NCBI GenBank assembly: GCA_903928565.1
Contig: CAIYRH010000018.1
Span: 10,693 to 74,692, forward strand
Source: Candidatus Staskawiczbacteria bacterium
GTDB lineage: Bacteria; Patescibacteriota; Minisyncoccia; Minisyncoccales; Staskawiczbacteraceae
Length of the DNA stretch: 64,000 nt
Direction of reading: 5' to 3'
A program made the translations under genes and the position numbers. Positions 13,583 to 60,660 of this stretch are shown here, in pieces; the stretch's first letter is position 1; each line of letters begins with the position of its first letter. The notes beneath the pieces were generated by a model. It did no database searches. It was given only the letters and a program-made list of their open reading frames with translations, and was not told the DNA's origin.

Positions 13583-14443
13583 TTATTCTTTAATTATATT
13601 TTCACCGTCAGAAACAAATACAACGTCGCCGTTTTTATCTGTTCTGAATATATTTATACCAAAATTTGCCAATCTATTCAATGCCTCAGGCGTTGGGTGC
13701 CCATAAGAATTCTTTCCAACATCCACAACGGCAAACGCGGGTTTAACATTTTCTAAAAATAAATCTGAGGTTGAATATTTACTTCCGTGGTGAGCAACTT
13801 TCAAAACTGTAGCTAAAATATTCTCTCCGCTGTTTACTAATTGCTTTTCAGCTTTTGTGTCTATGTCGCCGGTAAATAGAAATGAATCTTTTCCATAAAT
13901 TATTTTTGCCACAACGCACGAATCGTTAGAACTACTTTTCATTTCTTGCCCCTCCATGCTTTTTAAGGGATACATTGTATTTATTAAAACATTTCCGGCC
14001 TTAATTTCTTGGCCGGCCTGGGCAATTAAAATTTTAGCACCCATTTTCTTTTGTTCATCTAAAACTTTAAGCCACATAGTATATTCGGGAGCCGATTTCT
14101 TAATACCGCTCCACAAAATATAGCCTACTTTGTATTTTTGCAGGGCAAATAGAAGGCCTTGCATGTGATCGGATTCTGGGTGAGTTAAAATTACCAAATC
14201 AATTGTTTTGTCCCACACAGGCATATTCACAGACAGTTTAGCCAAAAGTGCAGAACTTGGCCCGCCATCAATTAAAATTTGGTGGCCTTCTGGGGTTTCA
14301 ATAAAAGCCGAATCTCCTTGCCCAACATTTAAAAAGTCGACCTTCAAATTATGCGGAAAATATAACGCAAAAACATTTTGCCACGCATAAATATTTAGAA
14401 TTATTAAAATTCCGGCAGTAAATATTTTTGTTTTCTTCTGCAT
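13583..14443 (-). CDS. ComEC/Rec2-like metallo-beta-lactamase domain protein
   Basis: LNVGQGDSAFIETPEGHQILIDGGP, HPESDHMQG, VAHHGSKYS motifs; N-terminal signal/TM. Confidence 0.6.
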   Translation of the reverse strand: MQKKTKIFTAGILIILNIYAWQNVFALYFPHNLKVDFLNVGQGDSAFIETPEGHQILIDGGPSSALLAKLSVNMPVWDKTIDLVILTHPESDHMQGLLFALQKYKVGYILWSGIKKSAPEYTMWLKVLDEQKKMGAKILIAQAGQEIKAGNVLINTMYPLKSMEGQEMKSSSNDSCVVAKIIYGKDSFLFTGDIDTKAEKQLVNSGENILATVLKVAHHGSKYSTSDLFLENVKPAFAVVDVGKNSYGHPTPEALNRLANFGINIFRTDKNGDVVFVSDGENIIKE

Positions 14444-27934: not shown

Positions 27935-30900
27935 CTATTTATTAAGCTCATTAAGCTTATTTCTTGTATTTGACCCCACCATTCCATATTGAAGTGATTT
28001 TGCTGTAAGAATATTATATTTTAATTGAAAGGCCTTAACTGATTTTAATGTTGTTGGGCCAAAACTTTTAGTTGAGTTTATTGATTGCGAAAAGAGATTT
28101 AATTTCTTTAAAATATTTTGCAACAAAATAACTTCGCTGTCGTAGCTACCAAATCTTAAATCTTTAGTTAATAATTGAGGCGTAGTTGGATTTTGCCCTC
28201 TTTGAGCCAATATTTGCTGTATAAGAATTTGCAATTGAAGAATTTGTGCTTTTAGAGATTCTATGGTTGGGGTGTTGTTTGGTGGAATATTTATTGGAGA
28301 TACTGGGGGCGTGGTTACCGATATTGCTGAAAAGTTTGCTAAAATTGTATGGGATTGGGTAACATTACTGAATGTATAGGTTGATCGGGCTCCAACAGAA
28401 ATATTATCTACTAGTACATCTGCAATTTGGTATCCTGTATATGGGGTAATGGTGAAGGTATAGCTTCCTCCTCGCGCGATAGACTGGCTTTGTGGAGTAA
28501 TTGAACCATTAGGGGTTACGTAGACTGAAATTGGATAATATGTTAGCCCTCCGCCACCGGGTGCTCTGGTTACAGTAATTGTGTATGTATTTGTGCTTGA
28601 ATCTTGAGCAGTTACTACAACCGTGATTGTATTAGAACCCACGTTTAGTGGCAATGAATCAGATGGTAAGCCAGATGTAATAGCTATAGGAGTTGAATTA
28701 TTAATGGATATTGTCATAGTTGCACTTGCCTGATTTCGTGTTGGGGTAACTGTTAAATTATTTGTATTGTAATCAACACTTTCGGTATATGAAGTTGTTT
28801 CCGATGAAAACGTTGGAGATAACGTGCCCGCGCTAATGGCAAGATTACTTAGGGTGGCGTCGGCGCTTGCCGGTGTTACAGTTATTGTATATGTTGCTTG
28901 CGAAACACCATCCTGAGCTAAAACAACTAAGGTATCTCCAGTTAATATTGGATCATGTATACCGGTATCTGTCCATGTCTGATTAATTTGACCTTTAGTT
29001 AGATTAGATTCAAAAGTCGCCTTAGATGTATTGTATGGAACATTAATTATTGTTCCCGCATTGCCAACAAGCGAACTAACCGTATAAGTTGATGAACTAA
29101 CTGTATCATTGCTACTTAGAGAAAAATAAGATATATTGCTTGGATTAGACCACCCTGATTGACCATTTGTAAGGGTGAATGTCTTACTACCCGATGAAGC
29201 AGGGGTATATGTAAAAGTAAATGAATTCGCAGAAGCAGCGGGAGTAACCGTTACCGACGAAATACCAGATGAGCCAACTGACGGAGTAAATGTACCGCCA
29301 TCTCCGCCGTCTGAAATTGTTATCGTTTGGTCTCCAATAAATGGCGCACTATTTCCTAAAGTCACAGTAAATGCTGTGCTAGTTTGTGATGCCGATCCAC
29401 TTGAAGGCCCAGAAACAGTATAGCTTGGCTGAGCTAATATTGGAGCAATACGTTTTGCATATTTTACAAATCCACTGTCTGTAGGATGCACATCATTACT
29501 TACATCTGATAAGGTTAATAGAGTTGTTCCATCAACTAATGCCGCATAACTACTACGCGCATTACACACTGTAGCAATTTGTGATCTATAATCTGCCAAA
29601 GTATTTCCATTTGAATTAAGCGGACCAGTAATTTCAGAACCCCTAACAAGAGGAGTTTGACAAATAACACGCGCAGCTGGCAATGCAGAATGTAGACCAT
29701 CTAATAAATTACCGTAAGCCGTACCGAAACTATTTACATTCCAACTATCGCCCCAATCATTTGTGCCAATAGCAAGATATATTGTTGAGGGCGTGTATGA
29801 CACAAGCCGACTTACAAACGCATTCAATAATCCGACCGTATGAGCATCATCGTATAAAGCGCGGTACCCCCACCCCTCTAACATTACACTCTGGCCGTAA
29901 AGATTTCTTAGCAATGGAACATATGCTTGGCTTTCAGGATTAGTTGCATAAGCTCCGGCTGATATACTATCACCATATACAAGCACACGATTTGGTGTGT
30001 CGTTAGGTGGCAACACATTAAATGAAGCAGTAGCAGGATATGTGATACTATTAATAAATGAACCACTCACAGTATTCGTGCCCCCATCGCTCTGCATTCC
30101 CGTAATTATATCTACAGTACGCGTAGTACCCGCAGAACCAAGATTAACCGTAAAACTTTGAGATGCACTAGTAAACGATAAAGGCGACTGGTCTACTCCG
30201 TTTATTTGCACGCCCAAAGTTGCATAATAATTTGGATATAAAGTTGAATTACCGGTAACGGTAATACTTGCTGCGTTAGTTGTAAAAACAAATCGAGCAA
30301 ATGTTGATTGCTTGGGTGCGTTAACATTATCATACCCATTATCCCACAAATCTGCTTGCTGAACATTATATGTGATATCATTCGTCACTATCGTTAATAT
30401 ATTTGAGGTGGCGGTACTTGATGTGGCATCGGTGTAGACGACTTTATAATCATAACTTGTTGAAGGGCTTAGTCCCGTGTCTGTTACCGGGCTTGTAGTT
30501 GCGCCACTTACATTTGACCATGTGTTTGCACTGTGTGCACTGCGTTGCAATTGCGCTGTTATTGGGGCAGTACCACCAGATGCGACCGTCCATGACACAG
30601 TAGCAGAAGTAGATGTTTGAGATACCGAAGAAAGAACACCAGCCGACAAACTATTATCTGCAGTTACCGTTAATATATTTGAGGTGGCGGTACTTGATGC
30701 TGTATCGGTATAGACAACTTTGTAATCATAACTTGTTGAAGGGCTCAATCCCGTGTCTGTTGCCGGGCTTGTAGTTGCGCCACTTACATTTGACCACGTG
30801 TTTGCGCTGTGTGCACTTCGTTGCAATTGCGCTGTTATGGGGGCAGTACCGCCAGATCCGCTTGTCCAGGAAACGGTGGCAGAAGTAGATGTTTGAGATA

Positions 30901-31615
30901 CCGAAGAAAGAACACCAGCAACCAAAGGATTATTATCGGTCACTAAAAAATTATCAATATGCACTTGAGTTGTCGCTGTTGCTGGCTGATCAAAATACAT
31001 GCAAGGAACACCAATAGAACCAATAATGTTTCCTCCGGTTGCGGTTACATCTATTACAGAAGACGCATCCCAATATACTTTAATATTATTACCATTCATT
31101 ACCAATTTCATAGCATGAGTCTGACCCGCAGCAAGTCCGGATAAACTATAAGCTCCAATTTGAGTTCCAATAGTTGAATATAATTTAATCATCGGACCGG
31201 GTGACACAGTAGCAAAATAGCCAAGGGTACTCGCACCACAACGTCCGCCAATCCCAGTATTGCCACTCACCACGCCATCCGCTAAATATACATCAGCCGA
31301 AACCGTATAGTTATATGTGGGTGGCGAGAAAGAACTATCGTATATGTCCATACTACTTAAAAGATAAATCCTGCCGGCACTTGATATGGTTACGTCTCCC
31401 CAATAAATAGCATTATTCTTGACCCAAGTATTGCCATCAGCGGTATGATTTTGTAATAAAGTACCGGTAGTATCTGTAAATGTATCGTTAACATATGTTG
31501 TAGCGCTAGCTTCATGCACAGAGCTAAAAAATAAAAAACAAGCAAAAAATAAAATTGCAACAGCTTTATAATTAAGAAACATTTTCTTCCAAATTTTATT
31601 TTCCATTACTACCAT
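27935..31615 (-). CDS. Large secreted multidomain protein: two FN3 repeats, SGNH/GDSL hydrolase domain, cadherin-like beta-sandwich, C-terminal peptidoglycan-binding domain
   Basis: Signal peptide; GDSIS and DxxH SGNH motifs; repeated FN3 block; C-terminal PG_binding_1-like helices. Confidence 0.6.
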   Translation of the reverse strand: MVVMENKIWKKMFLNYKAVAILFFACFLFFSSVHEASATTYVNDTFTDTTGTLLQNHTADGNTWVKNNAIYWGDVTISSAGRIYLLSSMDIYDSSFSPPTYNYTVSADVYLADGVVSGNTGIGGRCGASTLGYFATVSPGPMIKLYSTIGTQIGAYSLSGLAAGQTHAMKLVMNGNNIKVYWDASSVIDVTATGGNIIGSIGVPCMYFDQPATATTQVHIDNFLVTDNNPLVAGVLSSVSQTSTSATVSWTSGSGGTAPITAQLQRSAHSANTWSNVSGATTSPATDTGLSPSTSYDYKVVYTDTASSTATSNILTVTADNSLSAGVLSSVSQTSTSATVSWTVASGGTAPITAQLQRSAHSANTWSNVSGATTSPVTDTGLSPSTSYDYKVVYTDATSSTATSNILTIVTNDITYNVQQADLWDNGYDNVNAPKQSTFARFVFTTNAASITVTGNSTLYPNYYATLGVQINGVDQSPLSFTSASQSFTVNLGSAGTTRTVDIITGMQSDGGTNTVSGSFINSITYPATASFNVLPPNDTPNRVLVYGDSISAGAYATNPESQAYVPLLRNLYGQSVMLEGWGYRALYDDAHTVGLLNAFVSRLVSYTPSTIYLAIGTNDWGDSWNVNSFGTAYGNLLDGLHSALPAARVICQTPLVRGSEITGPLNSNGNTLADYRSQIATVCNARSSYAALVDGTTLLTLSDVSNDVHPTDSGFVKYAKRIAPILAQPSYTVSGPSSGSASQTSTAFTVTLGNSAPFIGDQTITISDGGDGGTFTPSVGSSGISSVTVTPAASANSFTFTYTPASSGSKTFTLTNGQSGWSNPSNISYFSLSSNDTVSSSTYTVSSLVGNAGTIINVPYNTSKATFESNLTKGQINQTWTDTGIHDPILTGDTLVVLAQDGVSQATYTITVTPASADATLSNLAISAGTLSPTFSSETTSYTESVDYNTNNLTVTPTRNQASATMTISINNSTPIAITSGLPSDSLPLNVGSNTITVVVTAQDSSTNTYTITVTRAPGGGGLTYYPISVYVTPNGSITPQSQSIARGGSYTFTITPYTGYQIADVLVDNISVGARSTYTFSNVTQSHTILANFSAISVTTPPVSPINIPPNNTPTIESLKAQILQLQILIQQILAQRGQNPTTPQLLTKDLRFGSYDSEVILLQNILKKLNLFSQSINSTKSFGPTTLKSVKAFQLKYNILTAKSLQYGMVGSNTRNKLNELNK
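30402..30933. repeat. Two near-identical 266-267-bp tandem DNA repeats (FN3 domain duplication)
   Basis: cgttaatatatttgaggtggcggtacttgatg recurs at 30402 and 30668. Confidence 0.7.
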
Positions 31616-40111: not shown

Positions 40112-40184
40112 GTTTAGCGATACTAATAATATACTAATCTCATACCAATGATACTAATTAGCTTCAATTCTCACAATTTTTTTT

Positions 40185-40202
40185 GGTTATCACGTGATAA
40201 CC
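40185..40202. promoter_or_regulatory. Palindrome box GGTTATCACGTGATAACC, 8 nt upstream of TTGTGA-N17-TATCAT promoter of tgt
   Basis: Perfect 18-bp palindrome. Confidence 0.6.
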
Positions 40203-40220
40203 TAAGCTTTTTTATTTCAC

Positions 40221-40412
40221 CTAACTTTTTAATAAATATTTTATATCTGTTTTTTTAATTATAAAATTGGGCCCGACTTTTACTGCTTTGATTGCTCCCC
40301 GATTAATTCTTTTCAGTACAGCCACCCGACTAATTTTTAAAAGCTTCGCCAGCTGACTCACGGATAAAAACTCACTTTTTTCTATAATAACATCTTTTAA
40401 ACTGTTGCTCAT
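40221..40412 (-). CDS. Excisionase/MerR-type helix-turn-helix DNA-binding protein (63 aa)
   Basis: LSVSQLAKLLKISRVAVLKRINRGAIKAVKVG matches the excisionase-family HTH; flanked by palindrome boxes. Confidence 0.6.
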   Translation of the reverse strand: MSNSLKDVIIEKSEFLSVSQLAKLLKISRVAVLKRINRGAIKAVKVGPNFIIKKTDIKYLLKS

Positions 40413-40436: not shown

Positions 40437-40460
40437 TCAGGTTATCACGTGATAACCTGA
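40437..40460. promoter_or_regulatory. Perfect 24-bp palindrome TCAGGTTATCACGTGATAACCTGA upstream of HTH gene
   Basis: Read directly. Confidence 0.65.
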
Positions 40461-40908: not shown

Positions 40909-40932
40909 TCAGGTTATCACGTGATAACCTGA
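40909..40932. promoter_or_regulatory. Perfect 24-bp palindrome TCAGGTTATCACGTGATAACCTGA immediately upstream of GNAT gene
   Basis: Read directly. Confidence 0.65.
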
Positions 40933-49442: not shown

Positions 49443-50521
49443 ATTTTATTTCAGCTTCTATAAATTTTTCTAAGTCGCCGTCTAAAACTCCTTCGGCATC
49501 GCTTGTTTCATAAAGCGTGCGCAAATCTTTTACCATTTTATAAGGGTGCAAAACATAAGACCTAATTTGATTCCCAAACCGCACTGAAATGTTTTCACCT
49601 TTTATTTCTTTAATTTCTTTAACGTGCTGTTCTTCGCGCAACTGATATAATTTTGCCACCAAAATTTTCATTGCCTTATCTTTATTTTTTCCTTGCAGCC
49701 TTTCTTTTTGCGAAGCGACTACAATGCCAGTTGGTATGTGCGTAATTCTAATGGCCGATTCGGTTTTATTTACATATTGGCCACCAGGGCCAGAAGCTTT
49801 AAATGTGTCTATTTTTAAGTCGTCTGGCCTAATTTCTAATTCAATTTCGTTATCTTTAATTTCCGGCAATATATTTACAAGCGCAAAAGAAGTGTGGCGA
49901 AGTTTTTGCGAATTAAATGGCGAAAGTCTTACCAACCTGTGTACGCCTGCTTCTTTTTTTAAAAAACCGTAAGCATAGTTTCCTTTTATTTCTATTATAA
50001 CAGATTTTGTGCCAATTCTTCCTTCGGGGCCACCGCCTTCGCCAAGCGCTTGGTGCAAAATTGCAGTTTTATAACCTTTTTTCTCACAATAGCGTTCGTA
50101 CATTCGTAAAAGCATTGTTGACCAATCTTGCGAATCTTGCCCACCGGCCCCAGAATATATTTCTAAAATTGCATTGCTTTTGTCGTATTTGCCTGACAAA
50201 TAAGTCTTAAATTCTTGCTTTTCTATCTTTACATTCAAATTTTCCAAAGAAAATTTGTCCTGAGCGGAGTCGAAGGATTGCAACACCTTATAATCGGCAA
50301 TATCATTTTTTATTTCTTCCAATGCTGATATTTCATTTTTTATTTCTGAGATTTCTTGTTGAACTTCCGTTGCATGTTCGTTGTCGTTCCAGAAATTTGG
50401 CAGTAATGATTCTTCTTCTAACTCTTTTAATTTCTTTTCTTTTCCGGCTACATCAAAGACGGTCTCCCAAATTCTGGAGCCTTGTTTCTAACTCTTCAAT
50501 TTGTGGAGTTGCATCTACCAT
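49429..50521 (-). CDS. prfB: Peptide chain release factor 2 with programmed +1 frameshift
   Basis: ATG 50519-50521, 22 codons MVDATPQIEELETRLQNLGDRL then CTT TGA T shifty site (rc of 50453-50459), continuing in +1 frame into the 297-aa ORF; GGQ-type RF2 body. Confidence 0.85.
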
Positions 50522-50567
50522 ATTGTTTTTATTTTATCATAATAATTGAAACAAAAAAAGACCGCAA
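50313..50567. repeat. Direct repeat copy 1 (~255 bp, prfB promoter plus first ~75 codons), ~92% identical to 51604-51858
   Basis: Aligned by eye. Confidence 0.7.
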
Positions 50568-50605
50568 GGCGAACCTTACGGAGTGCGTCGCTGAAAAACA
50601 GCGAC

Positions 50606-51268
50606 CTAAGACCTGGCAATGGAGAGCATGAGTTCTATGATGAACCGCTGAGCGCGCCCATAATTGAAAGTTTTTGCCTTGATAGCTTTTTCTAGGCGAC
50701 GAGCAGCACGCGTGACTTTGAGGTTGTGCTCAAGTTTATGCATCTCGCCCATAAAGAAACGACACCAAGCTAGACTCATAAACCTGGATAAACCACAGGG
50801 CATCTCCGCATTTAGCGACACTGTTTCGTCAATTGGCAAGCATGTCAATTTTGCGCTGAAAAAATTCATCGTCTTGAAGTAATCAGCACTGCCCACCTCA
50901 ATATCGCTATTCTCTCTGGGTATTTCATCTCCACTTATGAGAATTTGCCTGTTAGCCCAATCATAACAATGATATCCAACGCGCATGTTAGAGGGCAAAA
51001 CGGCATGATCGTAAGTGACCGCGATGCGCGAGATATAAAGACGTTCGTCGGTGGGCGTCCAATAAGAATGGATTACGGTGCCAGACGACCCCACGTCTTC
51101 AATTGCTTTTGTCCAGTTTTTTTCTTCCATCGACACAACAAGAGCGTCTTTAAGCCTGGTGCATCGCACATCTGGCCGGCCCGACCTGTTATACTCTTCC
51201 GCAGTAAAAGCACTAAATTGATCGCTGAGCGTAATAGCCTTGTAAGTGAAGCTCAATGTTTTTTTCAT
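50606..51268 (-). CDS. Hypothetical protein on a high-GC island; paralog of 27170-27769
   Basis: GGAGGA RBS before MKKTLSF; terminator hairpin 50553-50580; GC ~50% versus ~35% flanks. Confidence 0.5.
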   Translation of the reverse strand: MKKTLSFTYKAITLSDQFSAFTAEEYNRSGRPDVRCTRLKDALVVSMEEKNWTKAIEDVGSSGTVIHSYWTPTDERLYISRIAVTYDHAVLPSNMRVGYHCYDWANRQILISGDEIPRENSDIEVGSADYFKTMNFFSAKLTCLPIDETVSLNAEMPCGLSRFMSLAWCRFFMGEMHKLEHNLKVTRAARRLEKAIKAKTFNYGRAQRFIIELMLSIARS

Positions 51269-51394
51269 AGTACATTTCCTCCATTGTTTGGATGATGTAA
51301 AGAGCATCTGTGTTTAGATAAGGCACACCGAAAAGCCTCCGATGTTATAGCTTATAACACGAATTGTTTTATGTCAACAAAAAACGCTATTGCC

Positions 51395-51418
51395 TCAGGT
51401 TACCCTACGGTAACCTGA
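51395..51418. promoter_or_regulatory. Variant palindrome TCAGGTTACCCTACGGTAACCTGA followed by TTGACA promoter element of the 233-aa gene
   Basis: Same 8-bp outer arms as the consensus 24-mer, different centre. Confidence 0.5.
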
Positions 51419-51529
51419 GCCGAACTATTCCACTTTTTCGTGGAATGGCTGTGCCCCACCACCTTAATTTATTAATTTTTCATATAGGACAATTCTATAG
51501 AATTGTCCTATTGCGTTTTGTCGCACTTA

Positions 51530-51812
51530 TTATGCTACTTCGTTTTGATAACAACTTTCGCAATAAACTAATTCCGGACGGTCGGGAGAATAAGAAGTTT
51601 TGATTTCTTCCAATGCTGATATTTCATTTTTTATTTCTGAAATTTCTTGTTGGACTTCGGTAGCATGTTCGTTATCATTCCAAAAGTTAGGCAACACAGA
51701 TTCTTCTTCTAATTCTTTTAATTTCTTTTCTTTGCCAACTACATCAAAGACGGTCTCCCAAATTCTGGAGCCTTACTTCTAACTCTTCAATTTGCGGAGT
51801 TATATCTACCAT
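51530..51812 (-). pseudogene. Chimeric relic: duplicated prfB 5' end (start, frameshift site, ~55 +1-frame codons) fused in-frame to the last 23 codons of a Cys-rich-family gene (KTSYSPDRPELVYCESCYQNEVA)
   Basis: Start 51810-51812; stops TAA TAA at 51527-51532; followed by relic family intergenic palindromes (51420-51530). Confidence 0.6.
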
Positions 51813-51858
51813 ATTGTTTTTATTTTATCATAATAATTGAAACAAAAAAAGACCGCAA
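51604..51858. repeat. Direct repeat copy 2 of prfB 5' region
   Basis: See 50313-50567. Confidence 0.7.
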
Positions 51859-51883
51859 TAACTTTCGCTACTACGGATGTTTA

Positions 51884-52309
51884 CTATCCGGCCATTATGC
51901 CAGTCATAAAATTTTCTACCTCCAAAGCGATTTCTAGGCTCGTCAGACCGTCTTTCAGAGTCAGCACTAACGGATCTACCGTTTTTTCCATTGCTTCGAA
52001 TGCAAAACTATCGACACCAAAGATGACAATAGGCAAACATGGAATCTCCTCGCGCAATCTATGGTAAAGCGCTATGCCCGTTTCGCAACCACCCGCAACC
52101 AGATGTTCCCTAAACACTCCCCCGTATGGCAAAAAGTTAGAAGTGACTAACAGCTCTGACCGTTGGTCTTCTGGCTTATCAAATTGTTCCAAAACCGCCG
52201 AAGCATAGTCACAAACCACAACTTTATGCCCAGCTTTTTGCAATCTTGCAATGAGTATTTCATTAAAAAATCTACTATCTGTAGCGAATGCAATTCTGAA
52301 CGTTTTCAT
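51884..52309 (-). CDS. Hypothetical protein with degenerate CheY-like receiver fold (phospho-acceptor Asp not evident); moderately GC-rich
   Basis: AAGAAGGGAA RBS; pattern MKTFRIAFATDS...LLVTSNFLPYGG...IPCLPIVIFG resembles a receiver-domain scaffold. Confidence 0.3.
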   Translation of the reverse strand: MKTFRIAFATDSRFFNEILIARLQKAGHKVVVCDYASAVLEQFDKPEDQRSELLVTSNFLPYGGVFREHLVAGGCETGIALYHRLREEIPCLPIVIFGVDSFAFEAMEKTVDPLVLTLKDGLTSLEIALEVENFMTGIMAG

Positions 52310-52410
52310 GACGTTTGATTCCCTTCTTGTTGTGAAGTTGCTACGATTGATTAAGATCAATTATAATACTACCCGAATTATTCTATCTGTCAACAAAAAA
52401 CGCTATTGCC

Positions 52411-52434
52411 TCAGGTTATCACGTGATAACCTGA
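52411..52434. promoter_or_regulatory. Perfect 24-bp palindrome TCAGGTTATCACGTGATAACCTGA, 8 nt upstream of TTGACA-N16-TAGTAT promoter of the CheY-like gene
   Basis: Read directly; abuts the stop codon of array member 1. Confidence 0.65.
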
Positions 52435-52435
52435 G

Positions 52436-54013
52436 CTAGGATATTTCGGTTTGATAGCAGGCCTCGCAGTAAACTATTTCGGGGCGGTCTGGGGCGTAGG
52501 AAGTTTTGATTTCTTTGGCGCATTTGGCACATTGGCGGTTCCACAGTTTAAATGGAGTGCGCATAGACAATCTTTTGCTGTGACGGCACATAAAACAATT
52601 AACGGGTTGTGGCAAACCCATTTCATTATAAAAATCTTGCTCGCGATCTATAATTTTAAAATAATTACCGCACTGCTGACATTTAAAAACATTCTTTTCA
52701 TCGCCGGCGTATTCTACCTTAGTTTTCTCTCTCCAAAGAAACCCCTTTTGCGCTGCTGTTTCTGGCGATAAAGGGAAATAGTCTTGGGCAAGCGTTTCGT
52801 TGTAGGCAAAGGGCGATAATTCTGCCGGAAAAAATTGGCCGTACTCGCCCGTTTTTTTCATATGTTCAATAATTTTATCTCTTAATGCAAAATACTCTTC
52901 TTTAGAATATTGTTTGTTAAATATACAATGTTTTTTCTTGCGCAAACCTACGCAACCAAACAAATCAGACGAATTGTAACAATAATAAGAATATTGAACA
53001 TCGTTGGAATACCAAACACGCTTGCTGTAAGAAATGTTCGTGCCCAATATGCTCATTGAGTCATTTATTAATTCACCATAGCCACTGCCAAAACAATCGT
53101 AAGCATCTTTAATTTTGAGCGATTCTTGAACCCATTTTAAATTTTCGCCATCGTTAATGCCAAAACAATTTTTACAATTTTTAGAATTATTTATATTTTC
53201 GCCAAAACAATCTACTGCATTTTTGAATGTGTGTAATTGACGTGGCTTTGAATTTACAAATTTTATGGCTTCATCTTGTGAAATGCTTTGTATCTTCTCA
53301 AAATATTCTTTTTTAGTATATGGTTTATTAAAAATGTGGAATTTTTTACTACGTAAACCCACACAAGCAAAACAATTTGAACAATCGCGGCAATCGTATA
53401 AATATGATGATTCTCTGCATTCAATTGCAAACCGGCTAAACCGAACATTATAACATTTTTGGCTGTCTATTAATTCGTAACATTTTTCGCATGGCCCACC
53501 AACCCAAAAACAATCCGCAGAATCCTTAAGATCGTTTGACTGAGAAGTGTACAGAACATTCTCGTCGTAGTCTGAGACAAAAGTCATATAACAATTTTTA
53601 CAACTTAAAAGCGAATGACAATAGTTGCAATTTGACGAATTAGTGTTGGCCACATGAGGAAATGGCACCGCCTGAATAAGTTGGGCAAATTGCTCAAAAA
53701 ATGGAACAGAAAAATTGAAATCTTTTCCATAACTCATAACATCCCAATTGTCGGACCACCAATAATCTTGGTCGTAAACTACAACGTTGGCTTGAGGCGG
53801 GAAAATTGATATTAATTCCTCAGAGTGCCCTGGCGCCTGGCACTTTCTTCTAAAAAGATTGTGCTCGTTGCGCCACATAAACCTTCTACCAATTCTGCAT
53901 TCTGGACAAAATGTTGGAGCGGGCACTTTCATTTTTTCGTAGAACGCAAAATCATCAGGCTCTATTACAAAGTCTTTTTTGCAGTTTTGACAATTTTTTG
54001 TTTGACTATCCAT
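52436..54013 (-). CDS. Cys-rich double-zinc-ribbon protein, array member 1 (525 aa from MDSQTK)
   Basis: Conserved N-terminus MDSQTKxCQNCKxxFxIEPDDFAFYEKMKVPAPTFCPECR, internal CxxCxxCxGLRxKxYxIFNKxY(T/S)KEEY signature twice, C-terminus C..C..APDRPEIVYCEACYQTE. Confidence 0.7.
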   Translation of the reverse strand: MDSQTKNCQNCKKDFVIEPDDFAFYEKMKVPAPTFCPECRIGRRFMWRNEHNLFRRKCQAPGHSEELISIFPPQANVVVYDQDYWWSDNWDVMSYGKDFNFSVPFFEQFAQLIQAVPFPHVANTNSSNCNYCHSLLSCKNCYMTFVSDYDENVLYTSQSNDLKDSADCFWVGGPCEKCYELIDSQKCYNVRFSRFAIECRESSYLYDCRDCSNCFACVGLRSKKFHIFNKPYTKKEYFEKIQSISQDEAIKFVNSKPRQLHTFKNAVDCFGENINNSKNCKNCFGINDGENLKWVQESLKIKDAYDCFGSGYGELINDSMSILGTNISYSKRVWYSNDVQYSYYCYNSSDLFGCVGLRKKKHCIFNKQYSKEEYFALRDKIIEHMKKTGEYGQFFPAELSPFAYNETLAQDYFPLSPETAAQKGFLWREKTKVEYAGDEKNVFKCQQCGNYFKIIDREQDFYNEMGLPQPVNCFMCRHSKRLSMRTPFKLWNRQCAKCAKEIKTSYAPDRPEIVYCEACYQTEIS

Positions 54014-54087
54014 AATTTTATTATAGTATGTTTTTTCACGTGGCGTGAAAAACATACTACTGTCACGTGTACTGTCACGTGTATTGT

Positions 54088-54110
54088 CAGGTTGTCGCAT
54101 GATAACCTGG
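54088..54110. promoter_or_regulatory. Variant palindrome CAGGTTGTCGCATGATAACCTGG upstream of member 1
   Basis: Followed on coding strand by ACACGTGACAGT x2 and the stem-loop GTATGTTTTTCACGCCACGTGAAAAAACATAC. Confidence 0.55.
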
Positions 54111-54218
54111 TATTGGCTATTCCACTTTTTAGTGGAATGGCCGTGCCCCACCACTTTAATTTATATTTCTCACATACAACTATTCCATGGAATTGTTTAA
54201 TGGTGGGATTAGCAATGT

Positions 54219-55886
54219 CTAGGCGACTTCATTTTGATAGCAAACCTCGCAGTAAACTATTTCTGGGCGGTTGGGGGCGTAGCTGGTTTCAAATTCATTG
54301 ATGCAACCTGGTTTCATGCATTTTCTGTGCCAAAGTTTGGAAGGCCCGCGAAGCTCAAATCTTTTTTTGAGTCTACAAAAAAAACATTTTACAGGTATAG
54401 GAATTTTCCATTTACGATAAAAAGCCAACTCGTCAGGTACTATTTTATAATTTCTTTTGCAAACGTCACACTCTAATATTTCATTTAAAATTGAATCATC
54501 AACATTATTTATATTATCGGGGATATTTTTTAACGTAGTTTTACCGAGGGTTTTTTGAATATTTTCTTGCCAATTTAGCTCTTTGCTTAAAGCTTCTTCT
54601 TTTGTTAAAGGAAAATCTATCATCGCCATAGATTCGTTATAAGCAAACGGTGAATACTGCATTGGGAAAAACTCGCCCCACTCTCTTCCCTTTTTCATGT
54701 GTTCAATAATTTTTTCTTTTAAGGCAAAATATTCTTCTTTTGTGTATTGTTTGTTAAAAATTGAATATTCGCCATGTTTTAAAGCAACGCTGCCAAAACA
54801 ATTATTTGAAGATTGGCAAAAATCCGAATATGCCACATCCATGCATTTCCAAGCATGAATACAGTACAATGCCCTATTAGAATTATCTGGCGTTATGCTT
54901 TCATAGCATTATGAAAGTTCACCGCCAGAACACAAGTCGTAACTGTCTTTTTGAGTATCACCATTTTCTAAATATTTAGAATCTTCTGACCTGCGACAAT
55001 GAAAAACGTTTTTTGAATTTTTACTGTTAATTATATTATTCCCCGTGCAGTTTAGGCAATTTCTGGAAGAAACAAACCGCCTTGGCTGAGTAATTAAAAA
55101 ATTGTTAAATTCAAGTTGAGCCCTTTCGCAACCGTTTCGGCTTCCTATTTTATAAGCATCGATAATTTTTTCGTATTCTTCTTTTGTATATTGTTTATTT
55201 AAAATATAGTATTGCTTGTTGCGTAAATTTACAGACATAAAACAATTTTCACATCCAACACATTCAACGCAATAAGCGCAATTCATCAGACTGGAAGAGC
55301 CATAAACATTTCTGCATCCAAAACATTTGTCGCTATACATTACCTCATACAAACCTTCGCCCGTGCTAAAAATTCCCATTGAATCAACGGTGTCTTTTGT
55401 TTCGGCGCAATAACACGTGTACATACAATTTTCAACTTTCCATGAAACCATTGCCATATAACAATTTTTTCCCAAAGCGAAATTTTGGGTATATTCACAA
55501 TTTTCGCTTCCAATATTATTATCGTTGACTAAAGCAAGCGTGGGAACTTTCAATCTAAATTCCCTAAATTGATCAAAAAACGGTCTGTTAAAATCAAAAT
55601 CTTGTGCATATTGTTTGGGGTCCCATGAGTCTCCCCACCAACATTTATTACAATAAATGACTTGTGGGCTTTCTGGAGAATAAATTGAAATTATATTTCT
55701 TTTACATAAATCGCAATTACGATTATAAAAAACAAAATCGTTTCTCCATGACAATCGTCTCTGTCTTCTGCACTCTGCGCACCAGGTTGGGGGTGGGACT
55801 TTCATTTTTTCGTAAAACGCAAAATCATCGGGCTCAATTACGAACTCGCTGTTACAGTTTTGACAAACTTTTGTTTGACTATCCAT
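54219..55886 (-). pseudogene. Cys-rich array member 2, interrupted by a single in-frame TAA (54906-54908) lying within a small hairpin; otherwise a continuous ~555-codon reading frame
   Basis: Track ORFs 54909-55940 and 54219-54869 are in the same frame; N-half has MDSQTK start, C-half has the family C-terminus. Confidence 0.6.
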
Positions 55887-55948
55887 AATTTTATTATAGT
55901 ATGTTTTTTCACGTGGCGTGAAAAAACATACTACTGTCACGTGTACTG

Positions 55949-55972
55949 TCAGGTTGTCACGTGATAACCTGA
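55949..55972. promoter_or_regulatory. Palindrome TCAGGTTGTCACGTGATAACCTGA upstream of member 2
   Basis: One mismatch from the perfect 24-mer. Confidence 0.6.
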
Positions 55973-55978
55973 TGAATT

Positions 55979-57682
55979 TTAAACAACTTCTTGCTGGTAA
56001 CAGCCTTCACAATAAACTATTTCGGGACGATTTGGTGCATAGGAAGTTTGGATTGCAACATTGCATTTTGCGCAGTTTCTAGGCCACAGTTTTGGCGGAT
56101 TGATACGTGCCAAACGTTGCATGTGCCGACAATCTGAACAAAAATGAGGAACTGGGAATTCGAAACGGCGTAAAAGTGCAAGTTCGGCTGTTGTTATTTT
56201 AAAAGCTTTTCCACACAATTCGCAACCCAAAACTTCTTTTAATATTGAATCTTCCACATTTTTTATATTGTCGGAGATTTTATTGGCAGGTAGTGTAATA
56301 ACGTGATTACTTATTGCGGGGTCGCGCCACTTCCAGCCATTTTTTAAAACCTCTTCTTTTGAAAGTGGATAATACTGAATTGCTTGAGATTCGTTATATG
56401 CGAAAGGGCCTAAGTCATAAGGTAAAAAATCACCATAACGCCAAATTCTGCCAACTGAATCAATGTAGGGGTTTTTATTCATGTCTTCTATTATTTGCGC
56501 TCGCAAAGCTGTGTATTCTTCTGCCGAATATTGTTTGTTTAAAATTCTATATCGTTTCTTTTTTTGATTTATACAACCAAAAGAATATTGGCACGAAACA
56601 TTATACATTCCATATTCCACCTCCATAGTACCCTGATGCCATGCACCCAAAGTAAACCTAACCATGTCGGCCCCCTCGCCGACAGTAATTGAGTCTACAA
56701 CACGTTGAACGCCATTGCCCCATTCAGTGAGATCATAGATATCTTTAGCTGGAGGTATTGTTATAAATTGGCAGTATTTAGCATCTTCCAACTCGCGAGC
56801 CTGAAAACAATTGAGTGCATTCTTTGCACGATAAACATAATCTCCAGAAACATTTATACACTGTGCATCTTTGTGCATATATTTGTTTGGATATTGCAGC
56901 CAAAAATCATCAACAATTTTTTTGATCTTTAACAATTCGCTGTTACTGGCAAGATTATATTCTTTAATTTTTTCTAAATATTCTTCTTTGGTATATGGTT
57001 TATTAAAAATATAATATTTTTTATTGCGCAAATTAATGCAACCGAAACAATTGTCACAACCGATACAACTTTTTAAAAAATAAGATTCTGTGCACTTTGT
57101 GCAACTTTCGGAAAAAAATAACTTATAACCTTTGCTGTCTATGGCTTGATACATTAATTCTGACTCGCCCACCATATAGCAATCCATAGAATCTTTAACG
57201 CTTACCACAATGGTTGAATAATGAACATTTTCGCAAAAATCAGAATTAAAAACTAAGTAACAGTTTTTGGCACTTCCTGCATGATTAACATAATCACTAT
57301 TTATAAGTGTTGCGTGGTCATTTATTAGAGCCATATGCGGAGTTTTTTTCTGCAATTCAAGCATTTGCTCAAAAAATGGCACCGCTGGGTTGTATTCTAA
57401 AAAATGTTCGCCGTCGTCCCATTTGTCAGACCACCAACAGGCGGAACAATACATAATTAGTTTTGATTCCGGAGAAAAAATTGTCACAACATTTTCGCCA
57501 CATAAGTCACATTTTCTTTTATACAGAACTCTTTCGCTTCTACACATAATTCTACGCTGAAATCTGCAGGAAGGGCAAAATGTTGGAGCGGGAACTTTCA
57601 TTTTTTCGTAGAACGCAAAATCGTCGGGCTCAATTACGAACTCGTTTTTGCAGTTCTGACAAACTTTTGTTTGACTATCCAT
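55979..57682 (-). CDS. Cys-rich double-zinc-ribbon protein, array member 3 (567 aa)
   Basis: Same architecture; ends PNRPEIVYCEGCYQQEVV. Confidence 0.7.
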   Translation of the reverse strand: MDSQTKVCQNCKNEFVIEPDDFAFYEKMKVPAPTFCPSCRFQRRIMCRSERVLYKRKCDLCGENVVTIFSPESKLIMYCSACWWSDKWDDGEHFLEYNPAVPFFEQMLELQKKTPHMALINDHATLINSDYVNHAGSAKNCYLVFNSDFCENVHYSTIVVSVKDSMDCYMVGESELMYQAIDSKGYKLFFSESCTKCTESYFLKSCIGCDNCFGCINLRNKKYYIFNKPYTKEEYLEKIKEYNLASNSELLKIKKIVDDFWLQYPNKYMHKDAQCINVSGDYVYRAKNALNCFQARELEDAKYCQFITIPPAKDIYDLTEWGNGVQRVVDSITVGEGADMVRFTLGAWHQGTMEVEYGMYNVSCQYSFGCINQKKKRYRILNKQYSAEEYTALRAQIIEDMNKNPYIDSVGRIWRYGDFLPYDLGPFAYNESQAIQYYPLSKEEVLKNGWKWRDPAISNHVITLPANKISDNIKNVEDSILKEVLGCELCGKAFKITTAELALLRRFEFPVPHFCSDCRHMQRLARINPPKLWPRNCAKCNVAIQTSYAPNRPEIVYCEGCYQQEVV

Positions 57683-57744
57683 AATTTTATTTTAGTATGT
57701 TTTTTCACGTGGCGTGAAAAAATATACTACAGTCACGTGTACTG

Positions 57745-57768
57745 TCAGGTTATCACGTGATAACCTGG
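57745..57768. promoter_or_regulatory. Palindrome TCAGGTTATCACGTGATAACCTGG upstream of member 3
   Basis: Read directly. Confidence 0.6.
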
Positions 57769-57878
57769 AATTTGGTATTCCACTTTTTCGTGGAATGGCA
57801 GTACCCCTTCACTTTAATTTATTAAATTTTCACATTGAACAATTCTATGGAATTGTTTAATGATGGGATTGGCAATAT

Positions 57879-59534
57879 CTAGGCGACCTCGTTCTGGTAA
57901 CAGGTCTCGCAATAAACTATTTCCGGGCGGTCTGGGGCGTAGGAAGTTTCAAATTCGTTTTGACAACCTGCCTTCATGCATTTTCTGTGCCAAAGTTTAA
58001 AAGGCAGTCTCATTTCTCGGCGGGCACCTAGACGGCATTGAGGACACTCGCGTGGTAACGGCAATGAAAATCGTTTAAGATATTTTAATTCTTCTATAAC
58101 AATTTTATAGTTTCGTTTACAATATATGCATGAAAAGACTTCTTTAATAAAATCATCGTCGACATCTTTAATATTATCTGGAATATTTTCTGTTAAAACT
58201 GTCTCCTGGCTTGTGATTAAAGGCACATCCTCTTGCCAATGATAACCTTGTCTTAATGCTTCCTCTTTTGTAAGTGGATAATAATCGTTTGCGGCAGTCT
58301 CGTTATAACCAAAAGTGCTAAAATCTTTATCCATAAATAAAGCAAGCTCTTTTTTTTCTTCAATTTGTTTTTTTATGGTTTCATATTCGGCTTTTGAATA
58401 TTGTTTATTTAAAATACAATATTCTTTTCGCTTTAATCCAATGCAAGCAATGCAATTATTACATGAAATTAGGCTATCACACCAATCACAGAAGCTGGAA
58501 TTAAAAATATTGAAAGAATTTTTTATCATAGAACCTCCCTTAATCACTGCCGAACTGAAAATATTTTCCGTTGGTTGGGTGCCTACTGCATAGCTCCATT
58601 GAGCACTATTTGAATGGAGAATGCTGGCAACATTGCGCACATCTTGATTATCCGCACCATCAAAACACCAAAAATTTCTATCACAATTTTCGAGATAATT
58701 GCCAACACAGCCGTTAGATTTTAAGAAAAAAGCAAAGCGGTGGATAGCAACCTTCTTCAGCTCTTTATATTCGGAAAGCGAATTAAGATGAGTAACATAA
58801 CTGCCATTAAGAATTTTTTTACATTCTTTGAGATACTCTTCGCGCCCAACTTCTTTATTTCTAACGCAATAAGATTTATTCCGCAAATTATAACAAAAAA
58901 GACAGTTACTACAACCACGCAAGTCATAGCTAAAATAGCAATCTGAACAATCAGAAGAATCTTGAATATACGCAGAGTGATAAGACTTTATCACGTCTAC
59001 TGAATTGAGAATTAATTCGCTATCGGTTATTTTATGACAATCCATGCAATCTTTGTTGCCAACCATCCACATCGAATATAGGATATTCTCTGAATTCGAA
59101 ATTAAAAAAGAAAAATAGCAATTTTTAGAATCACGCACGTTGCTACCGTAAGTACAATTTGTAGAATTTAAAATAATGACAGCCTCCCGAGGAACTCTTT
59201 TTTGTAATTCAATAACCTGGTCAACAATTGAGCGACCAGAATCATAATTATTTCCATAAGATAGTCCATCCCATTGATCACTCCACCAACAGTCGTGACA
59301 AAAAATCGTATACGGTGATTTAGAATGATAAAGTGACATTGTTTTCTGTCCACAATGAGCACATTTACCCCAATATACCACTTTTTCGTTACGTAATACT
59401 TCTATTTGTGCCATGCCGCACTCATAACAGAATTCTAAAGGATTCACTTTCATTTTTTCATAAAACTCAAAATCATCGGGCTCAATTATGAAGTCCTTCT
59501 TGCAATTTTGACAAACTTTTGTTTGACTATCCAT
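57879..59534 (-). CDS. Cys-rich double-zinc-ribbon protein, array member 4 (551 aa)
   Basis: Same architecture; ends PDRPEIVYCETCYQNEVA. Confidence 0.7.
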   Translation of the reverse strand: MDSQTKVCQNCKKDFIIEPDDFEFYEKMKVNPLEFCYECGMAQIEVLRNEKVVYWGKCAHCGQKTMSLYHSKSPYTIFCHDCWWSDQWDGLSYGNNYDSGRSIVDQVIELQKRVPREAVIILNSTNCTYGSNVRDSKNCYFSFLISNSENILYSMWMVGNKDCMDCHKITDSELILNSVDVIKSYHSAYIQDSSDCSDCYFSYDLRGCSNCLFCYNLRNKSYCVRNKEVGREEYLKECKKILNGSYVTHLNSLSEYKELKKVAIHRFAFFLKSNGCVGNYLENCDRNFWCFDGADNQDVRNVASILHSNSAQWSYAVGTQPTENIFSSAVIKGGSMIKNSFNIFNSSFCDWCDSLISCNNCIACIGLKRKEYCILNKQYSKAEYETIKKQIEEKKELALFMDKDFSTFGYNETAANDYYPLTKEEALRQGYHWQEDVPLITSQETVLTENIPDNIKDVDDDFIKEVFSCIYCKRNYKIVIEELKYLKRFSLPLPRECPQCRLGARREMRLPFKLWHRKCMKAGCQNEFETSYAPDRPEIVYCETCYQNEVA

Positions 59535-59616
59535 AATTTTATTTTAGTATGTTTTTTCACGTGGCGTGAAAAAATACACTACTGTCACGTGTAATATCAC
59601 GTGTACTTTCAGGGGG

Positions 59617-59790
59617 TTATTTTTTCCAATCTATGACGCTGATTGTTCGCCCTTTTAAGGCAACAACCACCTTTTGGTGCTCTTTCCAGCCAAGTTTTTG
59701 CACAATTTCAATTGGAAGAGTAATGCCTAGGGTTTTTCCCTTGCCTGTTTTAGTTAATTTCCTAATATTTTTTTCACTTAGATTTCTCAT
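59617..59790 (-). CDS. AbrB/MazE/SpoVT-type swapped-hairpin DNA-binding protein (57 aa), missing from the ORF track
   Basis: MRNLSEKNIRKLTKTGKGKTLGITLPIEIVQKLGWKEHQKVVVALKGRTISVIDWKK; variant palindrome directly upstream. Confidence 0.5.
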   Translation of the reverse strand: MRNLSEKNIRKLTKTGKGKTLGITLPIEIVQKLGWKEHQKVVVALKGRTISVIDWKK

Positions 59791-59802
59791 GTTAAGTGTA
59801 CT

Positions 59803-59828
59803 GTCAAGTTAACCACGGTTAACCTGAC
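59803..59828. promoter_or_regulatory. Variant palindrome GTCAAGTTAACCACGGTTAACCTGAC upstream of AbrB-like gene
   Basis: Inverted arms GTTAACC/GGTTAAC; preceded by the actgtca context seen at other copies. Confidence 0.45.
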
Positions 59829-59842
59829 AATTAATTATTTTT

Positions 59843-59916
59843 TGGAGCCGCTTGCAAGAATCGAACTTGCGTCCACGCTTTACGAAAGCGTTGCTTTGCC
59901 ACTAAGCTAAAGCGGC
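59843..59916 (-). tRNA. tRNA-Thr (anticodon CGT), CCA encoded
   Basis: Manual fold: acceptor GCCGCTT/AAGCGGC, D-stem GCTT/AAGC, anticodon loop TTCGTAA, T-loop TTCGATT. Confidence 0.7.
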
Positions 59917-59994
59917 TGGAGCGAAAGACGGGAATCGCCCGGTGATAAACACCGGGCGCCCAGTGTTAATCACTGGGCGAACTACTGTTTCGCA
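59917..59994 (-). ncRNA. tRNA-like element of uncertain nature: acceptor-like ends GCGAAAC...CTTTCGCTCCA, but the core forms two consecutive 9-bp hairpins instead of D and anticodon arms
   Basis: Minus-strand CGCCCAGTG-ATTAA-CACTGGGCG and CCCGGTG-TTTAT-CACCGGG; 3' part resembles a T-arm/acceptor; could not be folded as a canonical tRNA by hand. Confidence 0.25.
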
Positions 59995-60065
59995 AGCGAG
60001 TAACGGGAATCGGACCCGTATCTTATCCTTGGGAAGGATACGTTCTACCACTGAACCATACTCGC
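59995..60065 (-). tRNA. tRNA-Gly (anticodon CCC)
   Basis: Manual fold: acceptor GCGAGTA/TACTCGC, D-arm GTTC-AGTGGTA-GAAC, anticodon loop TTCCCAA, T-loop TCCGATT. Confidence 0.7.
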
Positions 60066-60496: not shown

Positions 60497-60634
60497 TAGA
60501 ATAATATATTAAAAAAATTTATGAAAAGAAAAACAATATTTAAGATTACTTGGACAATTTTGATAAGCTTGGTGGCAATTGGTACAGTTTTGTTTTTGAT
60601 TGCACCAATTCTTTAGTGATTATATCATAAAAAA

Positions 60635-60660
60635 ACCCGCTTTTAAAAGCGGGTTTTTTG
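60635..60660. terminator. Rho-independent terminator AAAAAACCCGCTTTTAAAAGCGGGTTTTTTG (bidirectional shape)
   Basis: Read directly. Confidence 0.6.

Follow-up and report, generated by a model that had tools for sequence, protein, structure and literature searches.

What does a conserved, palindrome-rich segment do when it stands before each of several paralogous genes: does it act in the messenger, as a structured 5' leader, or on the DNA, as a promoter with its control sites? The question is raised by a 64,000-nucleotide stretch of contig CAIYRH010000018.1 from Candidatus Staskawiczbacteria bacterium (hereafter the window; GC content 37.5%), in which four paralogous, co-directional genes, g1 to g4, form an array at 52.4-59.6 kb. 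A first-pass annotation, made from the sequence alone, had noticed that these genes share an upstream module, and we find it in four copies on the minus strand, each ending at the ATG of an array gene (Table 1). It is a real, well conserved and repeated regulatory module. We give somewhat better than even weight to the reading that it is a leaderless sigma-70-type promoter lying beneath a palindromic operator; the transcription start site (TSS), the binding of a protein and the identity of the regulator we infer from sequence.

In all four aligned copies the module has the same order: one or more ACACGTGAC(A/T)GTAG boxes, an inverted repeat (IR), TATAAT or TAAAAT, AAAATT, and the ATG. The IR has the consensus (TA)GTATGTTTTTTCACG-CCA-CGTGAAAAAACATAC(TA), and its last stem base lies at -13 (at -11 counting the TA extension), which agrees with the 13 nt from stem to ATG reported earlier; no GGAGG-like motif occurs in the module, so that the reported lack of a Shine-Dalgarno (SD) sequence also stands. 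Other parts of that description need revision. The stem arms are not 11 bp long but 15 nt, and the TA/TA extension brings them to 17 nt; the supposedly fixed series of elements is fixed for the boxes, the IR and the ATG (4/4), not for the palindrome P1, which precedes g1, g2 and g3 only. The boxes, described as tandem, are so in g1 (two, with a degenerate third) and in g4 (three), whereas g2 and g3 have one box and a half. Two further palindromes, ATTCCAC-N6-GTGGAAT and (C)AATTCCAT(G/A)GAATTG, had been assigned to every intergenic region and are confined to the long spacers before g1 and g3 and to the surroundings of a relic of the array family. The IR core is found at four sites against 0.3 expected, P1 gives seven matches against none expected, and CACGTG occurs 21 times against 6.2 expected, 15 of these 21 lying within the modules or P1. 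The arms of the g2 IR (17 nt) are 100% complementary; that of g1 carries a bulge (T5 opposite A6), and the distal arms of g3 and g4 have one A.C mismatch and one G.T plus one A.C mismatch, respectively.

A consensus promoter scan places a promoter directly against the start codon in every copy, as TTCACG-18-TATAAT (g1, g2) or TTCACG-18-TAAAAT (g3, g4). The -10 hexamer, a perfect match in g1 and g2 and 5/6 in g3 and g4, occupies positions -12 to -7 counted from the A of the ATG, the -35-like TTCACG matches 4/6 at an 18-nt spacing, the start codon is ATG with a T at -1, and TG at -15/-14 is found in none of the four. We propose that each array gene would be transcribed separately, from a sigma-70-type promoter made up of the TTCACG, the 18-nt spacer, the TATAAT or TAAAAT at -12 to -7 and the T at -1, with a predicted TSS that coincides with the A of the ATG or lies no more than 1-2 nt from it, and hence a leaderless mRNA; the lack of an SD sequence would then be how this organism initiates translation. 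The promoter put forward in the first-pass annotation, GTGACA (or CTGACA) with TAGTAT, has a spacer of 13 nt, outside the 16-18 nt of sigma-70 promoters. Its -10 also falls within the 17-nt left stem arm, of which it forms the outer part, so that a transcript starting from TAGTAT could not hold the full hairpin.

Because promoter-like matches are frequent in AT-rich DNA, the leaderless geometry was tested in three independent ways. In 80 Patescibacteria genomes, 95 homologues of the array genes have 45 nt or more of unoccupied sequence upstream. A TATAAT-like hexamer (at least 5/6, with A2 and T6 fixed) begins at -12 in 17 of them; 6 have it at -13 and 5 at -14, and the other offsets average about 1.8 (p=2e-12). 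The same peak is seen in 390 unrelated genes from our comparison set of 165 sequences (the window together with loci L001 to L165, without L117): the hexamer starts at -12 in 53 of them, with a mean of 8.3 elsewhere and 6 or fewer at control internal ATGs (p=3e-26). In the 108 genes that have a -10 at -12 to -7, T is found at -15 in 80 and G at -14 in 62, T at -35 in 64 and G at -33 in 48 (a weak TtG at -35 to -33), and T at -1 in 67; such flanks mark a sigma-70 promoter of the extended -10 kind, with transcription starting at a pyrimidine-purine step, and not a ribosome-binding site. Within the window, an SD-like 4-mer precedes just 2 of 37 genes, and the missing SD is therefore a genome-wide property rather than one of the array leader.

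With transcription starting at the ATG, the IR is not in the mRNA; it is DNA (-47 to -11) that covers the -35 and the spacer and reaches two bases into the -10, where a bound dimeric protein would exclude RNA polymerase. An operator over a leaderless promoter is the role that, from its position and symmetry, appears most likely for it. The differences among the paralogues inside the IR all fall in the promoter-distal arm, upstream of the -35, and from -36 to +18 the four copies are identical save for T or A at -10. The closest homologue of the array proteins (81% identical) is encoded in a Candidatus Staskawiczbacteria genome (L001), where the orthologous gene follows the same tRNA-Thr and is preceded by a different perfect palindrome, GATGAGTGTTTTGC-CACGTG-GCAAAACACTCATC, at -46 to -13, which supplies TTGCCA at -36 to -31. 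Palindromes of other sequence occur in further loci, (T)AACTTTTTTGCCACGTGGCAAAAAAGTT(A) in L032 and L161, TGTGGTTTTTTGCCTCGAGGCAAAAAACCACA in L097 and GTACGGATTTTTTGCGGCCGCAAAAAATCCGTAC in L085. More distant relatives keep to the same plan, in which a palindromic, GC-rich core stands between a T-tract and an A-tract and the outer arms vary. Conservation in related genomes, on whose absence the first-pass annotation would have given up its proposal, thus extends to the palindromic structure (in the closest genome, L032 and L161) and not to its particulars, the sequence differing in the closest genome and the distance to the ATG in the other two.

The way in which the arms pair bears on whether DNA or RNA is the relevant form. 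Across 12 IRs of this type, arm positions are paired in 188/204 cases, with three to four types of Watson-Crick pair at the outer positions. The 16 unpaired positions comprise A.C (6), G.T (5) and other combinations (5), with no preference for G.U. The arms pair without such a preference, and it is therefore the symmetry that is selected, with no strand-specific RNA signal. Perfect palindromes no more than 120 nt upstream of genes of the array family have a zero-nucleotide loop in 19/25 cases, against 34/91 of those elsewhere (p=0.0012), many of the 91 being ordinary terminators with an A-tract, a stem-loop and a T-tract. The palindromes of L001, L032, L161, L097 and L085 are all zero-loop and perfect, and the IR copies of the window have a 3-nt centre. 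Zero-loop symmetry is expected of the binding site of a dimer and has no reason in an RNA hairpin.

A structured leader, transcribed from a promoter upstream of the IR and some 45-80 nt long, in which the stem-loop 12 nt before the AUG tunes translation or mRNA stability, we consider improbable. The 90-nt leader RNA does fold at -32 kcal/mol (z=-7.1), although the z-score of the leader is about -7 on both strands, and the arm covariation across genomes is compatible with RNA pairing. Upstream promoters can be proposed as well: CTGACA-16-TATGTT/TATATT occurs in 3/4 copies, and P1, whose right arm is TGATAACCT and which stands 8-10 nt before the ATG of five to six genes, may be one. Against these stand the 13 nt that separate the -35 and -10 of the first-pass annotation, the location of both TAGTAT and TATGTT within the left arm, such that transcripts would miss most of that arm, and the absence of P1 from g4. 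The AUG lies outside the stem and is unpaired in the minimum-free-energy structure, and there is no SD to mask; of the two modes of translation suggested earlier, leaderless initiation is favored by the -10 at -12 to -7, and dependence on the state of the hairpin is not, with the start codon left untouched and no ribosome-binding site to sequester. Mismatches of the A.C kind are as common as G.U, the homologous palindromes are zero-loop and centre-symmetric, and the IR-to-ATG distance ranges from 12 to 41 nt among close relatives. A leader hairpin would also leave the TATAAT at -12 to -7 and the T at -1 unexplained, and it has no Rfam match: a search of the whole window at the gathering thresholds, extended to E values up to 1 for positions 51200-60000, returned only tRNAs and noise.

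The palindromes could act in RNA in a second way, as intercistronic elements, that is, as hairpins on read-through transcripts or tRNA co-transcripts that would determine 3' ends or stability, terminate transcription in a non-canonical way, or serve as RNase III processing sites between the cistrons; we think this unlikely. A 17-bp perfect duplex is near the size of an RNase III substrate. In every case a co-directional gene or tRNA precedes the IR and P1, with P1 0-8 nt past the stop codons at 52433 and 55971 and with 10 nt between the tRNA-Thr and the IR in L001 and 5 nt between the tRNA-Thr and P1 in L161, and the terminator scan finds no canonical terminator between the array genes. Yet neither palindrome is followed by a U-tract, in genomes where T-run terminators are common, and they keep a constant position with respect to the ATG and -10 downstream, not to the stop codon upstream, from which their distance varies between 8 and about 200 nt. 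RNA, moreover, has no need of zero-loop symmetry, and P1 is also found upstream of a TTGACA -35. For the same lack of a U-tract we rejected the IR and P1 as intrinsic terminators: the IR is followed by TATAATAAAATT, and P1 by ACAGTACACG or by GGCAATAGCG with a T-run 9 nt off, and a terminator scan of the coding strand picked up neither, canonical GC-stem and T-run terminators being present elsewhere in these genomes. An integron attC or other recombination site was dropped as well, the genes being paralogues of one family, with no adjacent integrase, and the palindromes having symmetric centres. So were the sites that P1 and the IR might have resembled in better-known regulons, namely Fur/Zur, CRP/FNR, LexA, NrdR, DnaA-box and CIRCE-like sites, which we take to be unsuited in half-site orientation or sequence.

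Several observations weigh against an operator over a leaderless promoter. The -35 of the array promoter reaches only 4/6, the TG extension typical of leaderless promoters in these genomes is missing from it, and promoter-like matches number 58 in this AT-rich region against 30 in shuffles. In L001 the hexamer at -12 to -7 is weak (AAATAT), and the gene abuts the tRNA, which makes co-transcription possible; in L032 and L161 the IR sits at about -70 to -42 and is followed by P1, and there is no recognisable core promoter beneath it. Transcripts reading through from the upstream gene would contain the IR, and those from P1 would contain it too if P1 were a promoter, in an array leader of about 75 nt. 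At leaderless-type promoters, long palindromes precede 8/62 family genes and 8/139 other genes, a roughly 2-fold difference (p=0.096). Palindromes before family genes are thus enriched 12-fold over bulk sequence and a non-significant 2-fold over other promoter regions, and given p=0.096 in the comparison with other promoters a family-wide palindrome rule is not established. Nor did a search for enriched 8-mers upstream of 230 family genes bring out a shared motif: the words that it returned resembled a -10 or came from an unrelated insertion; by this comparison the palindromes are lineage-specific. Finally, the near-identity of the four module copies may in part reflect recent duplication or gene conversion.

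This last point, taken further, gives the alternative that the module has no specific function, the copies being alike through recent duplication or conversion and the palindromes being selfish or neutral elements (like repetitive extragenic palindromes or miniature inverted-repeat transposable elements) that happen to lie beside a promoter. A duplicated two-gene unit is indeed visible (repeat D7; 82% over 179 nt, spacing 3660 nt), and it is by duplication of this unit that the array arose. The synonymous sites of codons 1-6 are invariant among the array copies too, as gene conversion would give; P1 recurs at nine or more sites in 64 kb beside unrelated genes; and the enrichment of palindromes over other promoters falls short of significance, as given above. 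We nevertheless hold a lack of function to be distinctly unlikely. The gene bodies encode proteins that are only 36-45% identical overall, whereas the DNA from -60 to +95 is 81-97% identical, L001 keeps a perfect palindrome with other arm sequence, which requires selection for symmetry, and no transposase genes, target-site duplications or terminal repeats accompany the elements.

Upstream of the proposed operator, the boxes and P1 (about -48 to -90) would be additional protein-binding sites with a common CACGTG core. The boxes are two to three direct repeats of a 12-nt unit, TGACAGTACACG, every junction of which forms CACGTG. P1 (CAGGTTA-N8-TAACCTG) is a 22-nt palindrome dispersed over intergenic regions; the window has nine or more copies or variants of it, and their neighbors include genes for a GNAT acetyltransferase, an HTH_17 protein and tgt, and two unknown genes with TTGACA promoters. 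Relatives of the Staskawiczbacteria-like kind have conserved it, and the changes seen in its centre are compensatory. The case for P1 as a promoter comes from its right arm, which is extended -10-like (TGn+TAnnnT), and from five to six other genes in which the ATG comes 8-10 nt after the end of P1 and no second -10 lies in between. Against it, P1 in L156 overlies a good leaderless promoter at its -35 and spacer, elsewhere P1 lies upstream of a -35, and it is absent before g4; its dyad symmetry, which a -10 does not need, also counts against it.

Three proteins can be named as candidate binders. The nearest candidate for the boxes and P1, judged by location and resemblance, is a 57-aa AbrB/MazE-like protein encoded at the head of the array, which matches Pfam PF04014 at E=9e-5 (22.7 bits, below the curated cut-off of 24.7) and whose gene is itself preceded by a P1 variant and a box variant. 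In L085 the g3 orthologue has a remnant of this P1-box-AbrB-like arrangement fused to its front; a tblastn search of all fetched loci found no homologue of the AbrB-like protein, which tells against its being a conserved partner. The second candidate, for a P1-binding and autoregulated factor, is a 63-aa excisionase-family HTH_17 protein (40221-40412, minus strand), on both sides of whose gene P1 palindromes are observed. The zinc ribbons of the array proteins themselves are the third, and each of the three is a candidate for the cognate protein of the proposed operator. One could extend this to a family-wide picture, in which a Cys-rich family of the Candidate Phyla Radiation (CPR) has fast-evolving, lineage-specific operators that may be read by its own treble-clef zinc ribbons (autoregulation), half-sites and protein co-evolving, or in which, alternatively, IR and P1 hairpins cut read-through and tRNA co-transcripts into translatable units, leaderless initiation being otherwise the rule in the organism; we offer it as speculation that we would not expect to hold.

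The array proteins are 525-567 aa long and Cys-rich, with treble-clef zinc fingers at both ends (PF13451, PF23477, TIGR04272), and the N-terminus of g1, MDSQTKNCQNCK, is common to the other array copies. Their homologues number more than 6,400, every one from Patescibacteria/CPR, and often stand in tandem arrays of 2-7 genes. Searches with an array protein found only the terminal treble-clef zinc fingers in Pfam and NCBIfam and no match among PDB sequences; its AlphaFold model has a mean pLDDT (predicted local distance difference test) of 72, and for this model Foldseek found nothing in the PDB below E=2 (best E=2.3). The window is syntenic with L161 over ATP synthase, DivIC, tRNA-Gly, tRNA-Thr, the array, prfB, ftsE and ftsX. 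One array gene, g2, is split into two open reading frames (ORFs) although it carries the most perfect copy of the promoter and IR module; it is probably a pseudogene or the result of a sequencing frameshift.

Table 1. Positions in the window of the array genes, the parts of their upstream modules and related elements (CDS, coding sequence).
Feature	Position	Strand	Remarks
g1 CDS	52436..54013	minus	ATG 54011..54013, A at 54013
-10 TATAAT of g1	54020..54025	minus	at -12..-7; promoter scan TTCACG-18-TATAAT, 10/12
-35-like TTCACG of g1	54044..54049	minus	4/6, 18-nt spacer, within IR
IR of g1	54024..54059		TAGTATGTTTTT-CACG cca CGTGAAAAAACATACTA; -47..-11: covers -35, spacer, first 2 nt of -10
12-nt direct repeats of g1	54060..54087	minus	TGACAGTACACG units, the ACACGTGACAGT boxes of the first-pass annotation
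P1 before g1	54088..54109		degenerate (CAGGTTGTCGCATGATAACCTG)
Hairpin-type repeat before g1	54119..54138		ATTCCAC-N6-GTGGAAT
P2-type palindrome before g1	54182..54193		ATTCCATGGAAT
g2 CDS, split ORFs	54909..55886 + 54219..54869	minus	ATG at 55886
-10 TATAAT of g2	55893..55898	minus	
IR of g2	55897..55933		3-nt centre; -35-like TTCACG 55917-55922
Box region of g2	55934..55949	minus	ACAGTACACGTGACAG
P1 of g2	55950..55971		1 mismatch; 8 nt past g3 stop codon
g3 CDS	55979..57682	minus	ATG at 57682
-10 TAAAAT of g3	57689..57694	minus	
IR of g3	57693..57729		-35-like TTCACG 57713-57718
Box region of g3	57730..57745	minus	
P1 of g3	57746..57767		perfect 22-nt palindrome
Hairpin-type repeat before g3	57777..57796		ATTCCAC-N6-GTGGAAT
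P2 palindrome before g3	57839..57856		ACAATTCCATAGAATTGT, one mismatch
g4 CDS	57879..59534	minus	ATG at 59534
-10 TAAAAT of g4	59541..59546	minus	
IR of g4	59545..59581		-35-like TTCACG 59565-59570
Three box units before g4	59582..59612	minus	P1 absent
57-aa AbrB/MazE-like (SpoVT/AbrB-type) gene	59617..59790	minus	array head
P1 variant directly after tRNA-Thr	59805..59829		CAGGTTAACCGTGGTTAACTTG; L161 has an orthologous P1 after tRNA-Thr
Relic array-family C-terminus	51530..51697	minus	ORF
Perfect 28-nt palindrome	51484..51511		ATAGGACAATTCTATAGAATTGTCCTAT; adjoins relic C-terminus
P1 sites	40183-40204, 40438-40459, 40910-40931, 51394-51419, 52412-52433, 54088-54109, 55950-55971, 57746-57767, 59805-59829		

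The neighborhood of the array shows signs of rearrangement. The 5' part of prfB, encoding release factor RF2, is present twice (50320-50580 and 51600-51850, minus strand), including its promoter and the CTTTGA frameshift site, and the upstream one is a truncated copy joined in frame to the array-family relic. Around the copies lie two genes with no family match, at 51884..52360 and 50606..51307, each behind the same 49-nt module of P1 and TTGACA; the prfB copies and these flanking modules point to a segmental duplication or insertion beside the array. In many homologues from other Patescibacteria (among them L087/L088, L092, L094/L095, L096, L016 and L047) a hairpin-rich insert of 45-90 nt comes directly after about codon 7, just ahead of the CQNC zinc ribbon. 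In most cases the insert disrupts the reading frame and a new ATG comes after it; in L085 (1551-1601) the frame is kept. The insert has the appearance of a small mobile or structured element that recurs at a single hot spot. Elsewhere in the window, a TATAAT box and a leaderless ATG often come straight after a canonical bidirectional terminator (A-tract, GC stem, T-tract), as at 60630-60659 and upstream of 13583-14443 and of 27935-31615; this adjacency shows how compact the intergenic signals of the genome are.

How the array module compares with known systems depends on the part considered. Leaderless messengers are exemplified by lambda cI transcribed from PRM, and the array genes resemble bacterial leaderless promoters in the -10 at -12 to -7, the lack of an SD, the pyrimidine at -1 and the purine at +1; the positional -10 peak in these genomes is the kind of signal that gene finders use to call leaderless genes, and their general promoters have an extended -10 (TGn) and a weak -35. 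Mycobacterium tuberculosis has an extensive leaderless transcriptome (Cortes et al. 2013, as cited in PMC12641261). Unlike that case, the leaderless start is here deduced from sequence, in an uncultured Patescibacterium of the Parcubacteria type. The literature that we searched on leaderless and SD usage in Patescibacteria, Parcubacteria, Saccharibacteria and CPR yielded neither a TSS map nor a statement on leaderless initiation.

LexA boxes and the operators of TetR-family repressors are classical palindromes that overlap a core promoter. The array IR is like them in being a dyad of about 34-37 bp over the -35 and spacer, centre-symmetric in relatives and with half-sites that change together, and unlike them in that its arms of 15-17 bp are longer than most, its sequence is lineage-specific and in two relatives it lies upstream of the core promoter. 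CIRCE, the 9-N9-9 inverted repeat that is bound by HrcA and lies between the promoter and the start of heat-shock operons, serves both as DNA operator and as mRNA element. The array IR shares with it the form of an inverted repeat close to the gene start, and a dual role in DNA and RNA is by analogy possible; CIRCE differs in its conserved sequence (TTAGCACTC-N9-GAGTGCTAA), its 9-nt non-palindromic spacer and its location downstream of the TSS, and no link of the array to hrcA is seen.

Regulators of the MraZ/AbrB type bind direct repeats in promoters. Here, too, a small SpoVT/AbrB-type protein is encoded at the head of the cluster, and two to three repeats at 12 nt, about one helical turn, stand upstream of the array genes and also before its own gene; the array boxes are, however, unrelated to the GTGGG boxes of MraZ, and the AbrB-like gene falls below the Pfam cut-off and is absent from related loci. 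In ROSE and FourU thermometers and in riboswitch platforms, a hairpin sequesters the SD, the AUG or both. The array has in common with such hairpins of the 5' untranslated region a stable stem-loop shortly upstream of the start codon; unlike them it has no SD, an AUG 12 nt outside the stem, a predicted TSS downstream of the stem and no match in Rfam.

The observation made in the first-pass annotation was largely right, and of its interpretations the leaderless option alone survives. A promoter overlapped by a palindrome is in itself ordinary biology, of which the array element is a lineage-specific instance, but the reading of the locus changes, from an operon with a structured leader to four independently promoted, probably repressible, leaderless genes, and a huge protein family confined to the CPR gains a concrete, testable promoter and operator architecture. 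The P1 palindrome family and the apparent dominance of leaderless starts are side results that deserve follow-up: it appears, from the positional signals described above, that CPR bacteria of the Parcubacteria type express their genes mainly from leaderless extended -10 promoters, a statement that we did not find in the literature searched. Initiation of most transcripts at the start codon from TGnTATAAT promoters, without SD pairing, for which the comparison with unrelated genes adds quantitative evidence, bears on gene calling, on start-codon assignment and on the heterologous expression of CPR genes.

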